From Escherichia coli 042 (GTDB lineage Bacteria; Pseudomonadota; Gammaproteobacteria; Enterobacterales; Enterobacteriaceae): a stretch of 64,000 nucleotides of DNA. The DNA is taken from NCBI RefSeq assembly GCF_000027125.1, contig NC_017626.1; one strand, given 5' to 3'. The notes under the pieces are model-generated. The model worked only from the letters and a program-made list of their open reading frames with translations, searched no databases and had not been told where the DNA came from. The translations under genes and the position numbers were made by a program. Positions 8,747 through 11,494 of the stretch are shown here, one piece after another (the first letter of the stretch is position 1; each line of letters starts with the position of its first letter).

Positions 8747-9397
8747 TTATCGCCTGAGGTTATCGTTTGCCCAGGAAACCGCTTGTGTCCGGTTTTTTAC
8801 GGCTATCTTCTTGAAAAGATTATAAAGATGCGTTTTAACCGTATTTTCGCTGATGAACAACGAACGAGCGATCTCGTTATTAGACGCGCCGATACGCAGC
8901 TTATTCAGGATCTCTTTTTCCCGATGAGTAAGGAGGGCTGATTCCGTGCTGTTATAACGATAGTTACCTGAATGCGTAATCAGGTAACTGGCAAGCTTTT
9001 GCGTAAAGTAGCATTCGCCGCGCAGGACGCCTTGCAACCCATTGACAACACGTTCTTGATCCTCCATGGCATAAAAAACGCCGTTGATATGAGGCCAGTT
9101 TTCAATGTCGCGGTACGGGTAATCTTCAGGCGTATTTAGCAACAATATTTTGATATTGTTGTTTTTCCTGCTCAAAGTATCCTGCCAATAATGGATAAGC
9201 TTTTTATCCGCTTCCATCATATCCAGAAGAATAATAGAGCCTGAAGATATATCGTCCAGAGAACGTTGAATATTATGTAATTTTCCTGTAATTGCCAGCG
9301 ATTGTTTAAGGTGCTGCAAGAGAGCTGTCGCCTGCAAAGAAGGTTTGGTGATCAACAATAATGTATGACCATGAATACTATGGACTTCATTAAACAT
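8747..9397 (-). CDS. csgD: Curli master regulator CsgD (LuxR/FixJ family)
   Basis: 216 aa with C-terminal LuxR-type HTH ([30 protein letters not shown]). Confidence 0.93.
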
Positions 9398-10151
9398 GAT
9401 GAAACCCCGCTTTTTTTATTGATCGCACACCTGACAGCTGCCTCTAAAATAGAAGCACCAGAAGTACTGACAGATGTTGCACTGCTGTGTGTAGTAATAA
9501 ATCAGCCCTAAATGGGTAAAATATAAAACTAATGGATTACATCTGATTTCAATCTAGCCATTACAAATCTTAAATCAAGTGTTAAACATGTAACTAAATG
9601 TAACTCGTTATATTAAAATGTTAAACTTAAGGTTTTATTAAGTTTAGAAATGATAGAAAAGTTGTACATTTGGTTTTTATTGCACAATTTTAAAAAATCA
9701 TACAAATGGTGCTAACTTACTAATAATGCATATAAAAAATATTTCGGTGTAGTCCTTTCGTCATGTAAAACGTTCTTGTTTTTTCTTCACACCTCCGTGG
9801 ACAATTTTTTACTGCAAAAAGACGAGGTTTGTCACGGCTTGTGCGCAAGACATATCGCAGCAATCAGCGACGGGCAAGAAGAATGGCTGTCTGGTGATTT
9901 TTGATTGCGGAAAACGGAGATTTAAAAGAAAACAAAATATTTTTTTGCGTAGATAACAGCGTATTTACGTGGGTTTTAATACTTTGGTATGAACAAAAAA
10001 AGAAAAATACAACGCGCGGGTGAGTTATTAAAAATATTTCCGCAGACATACTTTCCATCGTAACGCAGCGTTAACAAAATACAGGTTGCGTTAACAACCA
10101 AGTTGAAATGATTTAATTTCTTAAGTGTACGACCAGGTCCAGGGTGACAAC
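9398..10151. promoter_or_regulatory. csgD–csgB divergent intergenic regulatory region (csgDEFG and csgBAC promoters, long csgD 5' UTR)
   Basis: About 750 bp of AT-rich non-coding DNA between divergent operons. Established knowledge: one of the most heavily regulated E. coli promoter regions (OmpR, CpxR, IHF, H-NS, RpoS; several sRNAs target the csgD leader). Confidence 0.8.
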
Positions 10152-10607
10152 ATGAAAAACAAATTGTTATTTATGATGTTAACAATACTGGGTGCGCCTG
10201 GGATTGCAGCCGCAGCAGGTTATGATTTAGCTAATTCAGAATATAACTTCGCGGTAAATGAATTGAGTAAGTCTTCATTTAATCAGGCAGCCATAATTGG
10301 TCAAGCTGGGACTAATAATAGTGCTCAGTTACGGCAGGGAGGCTCAAAACTTTTGGCGGTTGTTGCGCAAGAAGGTAGTAGCAATCGGGCAAAGATTGAC
10401 CAGACAGGAGATTATAACCTTGCATATATTGATCAGGCGGGCAGTGCCAACGATGCCAGTATTTCGCAAGGTGCTTATGGTAATACTGCGATGATTATCC
10501 AGAAAGGTTCTGGTAATAAAGCAAATATTACACAGTATGGTACTCAAAAAACGGCAATTGTAGTGCAGAGACAGTCGCAAATGGCAATTCGCGTGACACA
10601 ACGTTAA
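10152..10607 (+). CDS. csgB: Minor curlin / nucleator CsgB
   Basis: 151 aa; start trimmed to MKNKLLFMMLTILG; imperfect amyloid repeats. Confidence 0.92.
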   Translation: MKNKLLFMMLTILGAPGIAAAAGYDLANSEYNFAVNELSKSSFNQAAIIGQAGTNNSAQLRQGGSKLLAVVAQEGSSNRAKIDQTGDYNLAYIDQAGSANDASISQGAYGNTAMIIQKGSGNKANITQYGTQKTAIVVQRQSQMAIRVTQR

Positions 10608-10647
10608 TTACTATTCGACTTTTAAATCAATCCGATGGGGGTTTTAC

Positions 10648-11103
10648 ATGAAACTTTTAAAAGTAGCAGCAATTGCAGCAATCGTATTCTCCGGTAGCGC
10701 TCTGGCAGGTGTTGTTCCTCAGTACGGCGGCGGCGGTAACCACGGTGGTGGCGGTAATAATAGCGGCCCAAATTCAGAGCTGAACATTTACCAGTACGGT
10801 GGCGGTAACTCTGCACTTGCTCTGCAAGCTGACGCCCGTAACTCTGATCTGACCATTACCCAGCACGGCGGCGGTAACGGCGCAGATGTTGGCCAAGGTT
10901 CTGATGACAGCTCAATCGATCTGACTCAGCGTGGCTTCGGTAACAGCGCTACTCTTGATCAGTGGAATGGTAAAGATTCTACTATGACTGTTAAACAGTT
11001 CGGTGGCGGTAACGGTGCTGCTGTTGACCAGACTGCATCTAACTCCAGCGTTAACGTCACTCAGGTTGGCTTTGGTAACAACGCGACCGCTCATCAGTAC
11101 TAA
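10648..11103 (+). CDS. csgA: Major curlin subunit CsgA
   Basis: 151 aa, signal peptide plus five imperfect Q/N-rich repeats (S-x5-Q-x-G-x-G-N-x-A). Confidence 0.95.
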   Translation: MKLLKVAAIAAIVFSGSALAGVVPQYGGGGNHGGGGNNSGPNSELNIYQYGGGNSALALQADARNSDLTITQHGGGNGADVGQGSDDSSIDLTQRGFGNSATLDQWNGKDSTMTVKQFGGGNGAAVDQTASNSSVNVTQVGFGNNATAHQY

Positions 11104-11124
11104 TACATCCTCTGTATTAAAGAA

Positions 11125-11149
11125 ACAGGGCGCAAGCCCTGTTTTTTTT
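11125..11149 (+). terminator. Rho-independent terminator after csgA
   Basis: CAGGGCGCAAGCCCTG hairpin followed by T8. Confidence 0.75.
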
Positions 11150-11161
11150 CGGGAGAAGAAT

Positions 11162-11494
11162 ATGAATGCGTTATTACTCCTTGCGGCACTTTCCAGTCAG
11201 ATAACCTTTAATACGACCCAGCAAGGGGATATGTACACCATTATTCCTGAAGTCACTCTTACTCAATCTTGTCTGTGCAGAGTACAAATATTGTCCCTGC
11301 GCGAAGGCAGTTCAGGGCAAAGTCAGACGAAGCAAGAAAAGACCCTCTCATTGCCTGCTAATCAACCCATTGCTTTGACTAAGTTGAGTTTAAATATTTC
11401 CCCGGACGATCGGGTGAAAATAGTTGTTACTGTTTCTGATGGACAGTCACTTCATTTATCACAACAATGGCCGCCCTCTTCAGAAAAGTCTTAA
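11162..11494 (+). CDS. csgC: Curli assembly protein CsgC
   Basis: 110 aa starting MNALLLLAAL; the ORF-track extension upstream overlaps the csgA 3' end and is spurious. Confidence 0.88.
   Translation: MNALLLLAALSSQITFNTTQQGDMYTIIPEVTLTQSCLCRVQILSLREGSSGQSQTKQEKTLSLPANQPIALTKLSLNISPDDRVKIVVTVSDGQSLHLSQQWPPSSEKS

Follow-up and report, generated by a model that had tools for sequence, protein, structure and literature searches.

Does Escherichia coli 042 carry a complete curli (csg) locus, and would such a locus be expected to work? The question was raised by a stretch of 64,000 nucleotides of its chromosome (contig NC_017626.1), hereafter called the window, in which an original prediction, made from the letters alone, had recognized divergent csgDEFG and csgBAC operons at positions 8747–11494. 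Genes were found from a six-frame open reading frame (ORF) listing and from annotated genomes, and were compared base by base with E. coli K-12 MG1655 as the reference. By the ORF listing and the annotated genomes, the window is a piece of E. coli chromosome running from efeB to ycfH, and the locus lies between the same neighbors as in K-12, ycdZ and ymdA. Positions 8747–11494, together with csgE, csgF, and csgG, almost certainly make up the canonical E. coli curli locus, complete and undamaged, and no evidence contradicting this identification was found in the sequence.

Gene content and identity of the locus

The seven genes form two divergent blocks, csgGFED on the minus strand (7052–9397) and csgBAC on the plus strand (10152–11494), as had been proposed; the span first given covers csgD, the spacer, and csgBAC, but csgE, csgF, and csgG lie outside it, at 7052–8742. 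The coding features are the following:

7052–7885, minus strand: csgG, outer-membrane lipoprotein secretion channel (PF03783, 278 bits; NF011731 equivalog, 645.7 bits against a cut-off of 505, residues 1–277 of 277)
7912–8328, minus strand: csgF, curli assembly factor (Pfam match; NF007469, 311 bits against a cut-off of 171, full length)
8353–8742, minus strand: csgE, secretion specificity factor (Pfam match; NF007701, 250 bits against a cut-off of 137, full length)
8747–9397, minus strand: csgD, FixJ/LuxR-type master regulator (PF00196 and PF21155; NF007505 equivalog, 357 bits against a cut-off of 250)
10152–10607, plus strand: csgB, minor (nucleator) curlin (Pfam match; NF007506, 270 bits against a cut-off of 165)
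10648–11103, plus strand: csgA, major curlin (PF07012; NF007470 equivalog, 239 bits against a cut-off of 160)
11162–11494, plus strand: csgC, periplasmic inhibitor/chaperone of CsgA amyloid formation (Pfam match; NF007507, 171 bits against a cut-off of 75)

Each of the seven genes has the K-12 length, an ATG start, one terminal stop, and zero internal stops, and every intra-operon spacer equals its K-12 counterpart in length. All seven products were matched by NCBIfam equivalogs from the first to the last residue with scores that exceed the curated cut-offs, and had Pfam matches as well (PF03783, PF10627, PF10614, and PF10610 for csgG, csgE, csgF, and csgC, respectively). Mechanical translation and the comparison with K-12 revealed no frameshift or premature stop in any csg gene, and the claim that all seven are intact therefore held when they were carefully re-translated. 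It is extremely improbable that one or more of them is a pseudogene through a frameshift missed by eye, a reading refuted by the ORF translation, the K-12 comparison, and the NCBIfam matches: translation yields single full-length ORFs of K-12 length, the profile matches span residue 1 to the end, and RefSeq gives the identical sequence no pseudogene flag. The same seven gene names are used by RefSeq for the K-12 locus and for the identical locus of strain 118UI. The sequence features that distinguish a curli system, whose hallmark as a phenotype is Congo-red-binding, SDS-insoluble amyloid fibers, are all found here, namely divergent csgDEFG and csgBA(C) operons with a long regulatory spacer between them, the CsgG channel accompanied by CsgE, CsgF, and CsgC, a FixJ/LuxR-family regulator in CsgD, and five-repeat CsgA and CsgB.

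Compared with the K-12 MG1655 locus (csgGFED/csgBAC, b1037–b1043), the one described here agrees in its seven genes, their order and orientation, gene and spacer lengths, and flanks, and differs at 65 nucleotides in the seven coding sequences and at 8 in the divergent spacer. CsgG, CsgE, and CsgB are identical to the K-12 proteins, and the lipobox of CsgG (L-S-G-C, residues 13–16) is visible in the translation. CsgF carries a single substitution (F60Y) and CsgC two (T3A and V24M), while CsgD, also with two (S19P and S110A), retains Asp59 in its receiver-like domain and has a C-terminal helix-turn-helix. CsgA differs at three residues (T61A, N110D, and E112T), and the substitutions that had been suspected proved real in the alignment with K-12.

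CsgA is laid out as a signal peptide, an N-terminal 22-residue segment, and repeats R1–R5, which start at residues 43, 66, 88, 111, and 133 and all fit S-x5-Q-x-G-x-G-N-x-A-x3-Q. Five repeats with a strict 22-residue period are also present in CsgB, whose self-identity at lag 22 is 37%, and the periodic self-identity of each protein was matched by none of 1000 shuffles, which bears out the five imperfect amyloid repeats attributed to both curlins. The three CsgA substitutions sit at non-consensus positions, in the R1 tail and at the R3/R4 junction, leaving the S/Q/G/N/A consensus unaffected; the protein was also aligned to the cryo-electron microscopy fibril chain 8ENQ. Variants of the CsgA protein have been catalogued in a paper which states that sequence differences in CsgA have yet to be shown to influence adhesion or biofilm formation (PMC8767327).

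Comparison across genomes indicates that this is an ordinary allele, already known, of a nearly universal E. coli locus. Strain 118UI (NZ_CP032515.1) and no fewer than 24 further complete E. coli genomes match the 4.6 kb at positions 7000–11600 of the window with 100% identity, and these genomes, at least 25 in all, come from humans, poultry, ducks, and water. Identity reaches 99% or more in 633 of 5,426 genomes, and 5,329 of the 5,426 have at least 80% of the locus in one place. In 118UI, RefSeq gives all seven products the protein accessions that they have here, and no difference in the locus separates the two strains. As a curli locus it offers nothing new, being one of the best-studied bacterial amyloid systems with its exact allele public in many genomes. 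The csg (agf) system of Salmonella enterica has the same two-operon architecture and mechanism. There, csgB, csgA, and csgC are adjacent and in the same order, and in S. enterica subsp. diarizonae csgA and csgB are diverged by approximately 26% and 17% in nucleotides, respectively. RcsB and H-NS have opposite regulatory signs in Salmonella and Escherichia (PMC12388358).

Regulatory spacer, transcript ends, and expected expression

The intergenic region that separates the two operons, put at about 750 bp in the original prediction, measures 754 bp. Its features, together with those of the transcript ends, are listed below:

9398–10151, no strand: csgD–csgB spacer, 754 bp, 34.5% G+C, 12 A/T runs of at least 5 bases
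9398–9544, minus strand: csgD 5' untranslated leader, about 147 nt, identical to K-12
9551–9578, minus strand: putative csgD core promoter, −35 TTGATT (9578–9573), 16-nt spacer, −10 TAGATT (9556–9551), start near 9544
9581–9604, minus strand: OmpR-type direct repeat GTTACATTTAGTTACATGTTTAAC, centered at about −49 from the csgD start, identical to K-12
9657–9691, minus strand: MlrA-type palindrome AAAATTGTGCA-N12-TGTACAACTTTT, at about −113 to −147 from the csgD start, identical to K-12
9803–9830, no strand: predicted local intrinsic-curvature peak, 52 degrees in the wedge model, flanked by T6/T6/A5 runs
10017–10027, plus strand: CsgD-box match CGGGTGAGTTA 5' of csgB, identical to K-12
11119–11152, plus strand: intrinsic terminator between csgA and csgC, a 13-bp GC-rich stem with a GCAA loop followed by a U run
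6980–7045, minus strand: two stem-loops with U tails directly 3' of the csgG stop, fold −32.2 kcal/mol, z = −7.0

The csgD leader is a target of OmrA/B, McaS, RprA, and GcvB. Rfam family ES056 (RF02752), a fragment of this leader, was matched over its full model at 9453–9544 (119.7 bits against a gathering score of 43), and the csgD start predicted near 9544 agrees with the 5' end of that match. The core promoter fits the consensus at 8 of 12 positions, below the threshold of the consensus scan, and a weak match of this kind is as expected of an activator- and σS-dependent promoter. The scan missed this known promoter and returned, in total, as many promoter-like sites as shuffled sequence would give, and for this reason no weight was placed on it. 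We take the direct repeat at 9581–9604 to be that of OmpR, and the match at 10017–10027 fits what is presumably the CsgD-box consensus, CGGGKGAGNKA. The elements expected in cis of a curli locus, as far as they can be recognized from their sequences, are all present and identical to K-12: leader, −10/−35, OmpR repeat, MlrA palindrome, and CsgD box. These assignments rest partly on published work (PMC3535384, PMC12388358, PMC3913822), in which a 33-bp MlrA palindrome is located between the IHF and OmpR sites (PMC3913822).

Eight of the 754 spacer positions are single-nucleotide polymorphisms (SNPs) relative to K-12, at 9625, 9712, 9787, 9886, 9897, 9906, 9995, and 10125, and all eight lie outside the cis elements named above, from the leader to the CsgD box; from the csgD start codon to −80 (9398–9624) there are zero differences. 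The SNP at 9625 lies at −81 from the csgD start, within a region of crowded published footprints, where H-NS extends from −201 to +28 and RcdA reaches down to −20 (PMC3535384, PMC12388358).

With 34.5% G+C against 50.5% for the window, and a minimum of 24% over 200 bp, the spacer is among the lowest 0.7% of all 754-bp windows, and its description as AT-rich stands, but “extremely” is somewhat strong for such a value. The homopolymeric A/T tracts pointed out earlier are indeed numerous, the 12 runs comparing with a median of 3 per 754-bp window and with 3.75 in mononucleotide shuffles, but they do not exceed shuffles that preserve dinucleotides, because the dinucleotide content of the spacer is AA/TT-rich; an excess of A/T homopolymers beyond composition was thus not supported. 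Phased A-tracts across the whole spacer were rejected, AA/TT periodicity at 10–11 bp being absent (all |z| < 1), and an isolated z of 2.8 at 12.25 bp was disregarded as a multiple-testing artefact. What survives of the likely curvature is local, since the overall phasing is lacking: the predicted peak at 9803–9830 is the second highest in the 64 kb (99th percentile, 37.5), with smaller peaks at 9680–9760 and 9920–9990, the values of the wedge model being indicative only. The literature describes the csgD–csgB spacer as curved, AT-rich, and bound by many transcription factors.

At the end of the minus-strand operon, the stem-loops at 6980–7045 are likely the csgDEFG terminators, shared with the convergent ycdZ, and a terminator-like site at 7004..6980 on the minus strand was also returned by the consensus scan. 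The hairpin between csgA and csgC (−23.4 kcal/mol, z = −4.76; none of 200 shuffles equally stable) was detected by folding and was not picked up by the consensus terminator scan. Because this terminator is strong, the structural transcript should mostly end after csgA, and csgC is probably expressed only by read-through. Gene order and strand are those of the csgBAC operon that had been announced, but the terminator would make it effectively a csgBA operon with csgC reached by read-through.

The curli locus appears functional, and from its sequence we infer expression and fiber formation in this strain. The steps that follow are drawn from the literature on the curli system, the contribution of the present analysis being the genes, frames, families, repeats, cis conservation, and allele recurrence. 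In stationary phase, below approximately 30 °C and at low osmolarity, σS RNA polymerase would transcribe csgDEFG from the weak promoter at about 9544–9578, aided by MlrA, OmpR, and IHF and countered by H-NS, CpxR, and RcsB, all within the AT-rich, locally curved spacer, and small RNAs would pair to the 147-nt csgD leader and control it. CsgD would switch on csgBA via the CsgD box near 10017, CsgA and CsgB would leave the cytoplasm by Sec, and the CsgE cap and CsgF adaptor would hand them through the CsgG channel. At the cell surface, CsgB would nucleate the polymerization of the five-repeat CsgA β-solenoid into amyloid fibers, and CsgC would prevent premature polymerization of CsgA in the periplasm. 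The analysis suggests that the strain could form curli-dependent biofilm if its regulators are intact.

Several points temper the expectation of a working locus. The requirements in trans (rpoS, mlrA, ompR, and a cyclic di-GMP (c-di-GMP) module) are encoded outside the window; the SNP at −81, the seven further spacer SNPs, and the CsgD substitutions S19P and S110A are differences from K-12; and the A/T runs of the spacer show no excess beyond dinucleotide content (8.8 ± 2.2 in dinucleotide-preserving shuffles, 119 of 1000 of which reach 12). Curli genes are intact in 19 of 20 E. albertii strains and only 9 of these strains produce curli (PMC11420993), and the title and abstract of another study speak of intact curli genes often found alongside a curli-negative phenotype (PMC6029578).

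The locus might thus be intact and nevertheless silent or altered in this strain, through the cis differences or through defects in trans, which we regard as rather unlikely. Curli production in only 9 of the 19 E. albertii strains with intact csg genes, with identical spacers accompanying differing phenotypes (PMC11420993), gives it a precedent, as does the loss of curli by defects in c-di-GMP signaling that the abstract of one report describes for soil E. coli (PMC6029578), and the eight spacer SNPs and two CsgD substitutions would be its candidate causes in cis. However, the exact allele is widespread among complete genomes of human, poultry, and water origin, a distribution that speaks against a deleterious cis defect, and none of the core elements recognized between +147 and −80 differs from K-12, nor does the MlrA palindrome.

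A divergent tract in csgA

The most diverged 456-bp stretch of the window, relative to K-12, is csgA itself (6.4%, against a median of 1.5% over the 58 kb that can be aligned), and windows that reach 6.4% are exclusively those overlapping this gene. All of its 29 differences from K-12 fall within gene nucleotides 129–411, 26 of them synonymous, and two codons are wholly replaced (Ser134, TCC to AGC, and codon 112, GAA to ACT). The csgA genes of E. albertii, E. whittamii, and four other Escherichia genomes were taken from a pattern scan of species-representative genomes, E. albertii being represented by one genome (NBRC 107761). Against K-12 and E. albertii, the gene divides into three parts:

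csgA nt 1–198, plus strand: 1.5% from K-12, 9.6% from E. albertii
csgA nt 199–411 (10846–11058), plus strand, the divergent tract, from R2 to the start of R5: 12.2% from K-12, 2.8% from E. albertii
csgA nt 412–456, plus strand: 0% from K-12, 8.9% from E. albertii

Within nucleotides 199–405, the gene shares its base with E. albertii but not K-12 at 22 sites and with K-12 but not E. albertii at 2, and outside these limits the numbers turn round to 2 and 22 (Fisher p = 4.8e-9; the observed contrast was reached by none of 200 permutations). E. albertii NBRC 107761 differs at 6 of the 213 nucleotides of the tract, and A61, D110, and T112 of CsgA are the E. albertii states, whereas the rest of its csgA is 9–10% diverged, its csgB 5.5%, and its csgC 11.7%, and the N-terminal segment of its CsgA reads GSIPQ in place of GVVPQ. 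In csgB and csgC no affinity to E. albertii comparable to that of the csgA tract was seen, with one E. albertii genome in the comparison.

Identity to the tract is bimodal among 5,382 E. coli genomes, with 1,728 at 95% or more, only 6 at 90–95%, and 2,127 at 80–90%, and the haplotype of the window occurs in approximately one-third of E. coli genomes. The allele of clone D i14 has a tract of this type, 1.9% apart, and O157:H7 has a third type, about 10–13% away from the window type and the K-12 type alike. At least three tract haplotypes exist in E. coli (K-12, O157:H7, and window/clone D i14), mutually 10–14% apart, nearly always at synonymous positions, with flanks that differ by 0–4%. As judged from these alignments, the csgA repeat region occurs as several deep haplotypes, one of them common to E. 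coli and E. albertii. Conversion among the five csgA repeat units was considered and rejected, the repeat cores sharing only 39–72% DNA identity and the variant bases of the window being found in other repeats at 14 of 22 sites, against 16 of 22 for the K-12 bases, which is no excess.

A short recombination import between an E. albertii-like lineage and E. coli, functionally meaningless, is an explanation that we hold to be evenly balanced between right and wrong. It agrees well with the sharp limits of the mosaic, with a tract closer to E. albertii than the flanking csgB and csgC are, and with the preponderance of synonymous differences from K-12, but a single import does not account for three deep classes within E. 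coli set between flanks that hardly differ, nor does the bimodal identity speak for it, and the E. albertii side of the comparison is one genome. That the central repeats of csgA (10846–11058) are instead a long-lived polymorphism shared across species is possible, although we consider it doubtful. Silent divergence is highest around CsgA residues 110 and 112 (N/D and E/T/H, respectively), the only ones that vary, at the R3–R4 junction, and the pattern fits both balancing selection on residues 110–112 and repeated short-tract exchange between Escherichia species. Were balancing selection true, fiber cross-seeding specificity, host recognition, and a phage or predator receptor would be possible agents. 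No description of the csgA mosaic, of the deep-haplotype pattern, or of the link with E. albertii was found in the searchable literature, and we see the haplotype structure as a modest lead and not a discovery, one that could interest those who study amyloid determinants or recombination in Escherichia.

Other features of the window

Next to csgC, the gene ymdA (11615–11926; 103 codons) departs from K-12 at 13 nucleotides and 7 amino acids, a replacement fraction unusually high for the region; RefSeq names its counterpart in 118UI a type 1 fimbrial protein. At the left end of the window (1–3680), the gene order is efeB, phoH, a DUF2726 gene (2986–3672), and tRNA-Ser serX. Upstream of serX, K-12 has dgcT, IS3D, ymdE, and ycdU, and the PGA polysaccharide locus, pgaABCD, presumably comes after phoH and before dgcT. 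Both pgaABCD and the diguanylate cyclase gene dgcT appear to be missing from the efeB–serX site, an apparent absence that bears on biofilm capacity.

Outside the csg locus, the window differs from strain 118UI by about 0.5–1.5%, and that strain has an IS200C that is absent here. A 1.4-kb element of the IS3 family lies between rluC and yceF (52932–54365) and is annotated as IS1397 in matching genomes; this copy has no counterpart at the same site in K-12 or 118UI. IS1397 targets the palindromes of bacterial interspersed mosaic elements/repetitive extragenic palindromic sequences (BIME/REP). Between flgL and rne, positions 47232–48115 have no K-12 alignment and correspond in 118UI to a GNAT-family acetyltransferase and a DUF1778 protein, the usual makeup of a toxin–antitoxin pair. 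Five further Rfam matches at the gathering score are expected E. coli features: Ysr251 at 2201–2394 on the minus strand, opposite the 3' end of phoH; ES036/CssrF at 19639–19681 (minus); the PyrC leader at 28812–28861 (minus); the RNase E 5' untranslated region element at 51377–51713 (minus); and SraB at 55010–55178 (plus). The intergenic segment between flgF and flgG at 40779–40871 gave no K-12 alignment by BLAST and is possibly a variable repetitive element.

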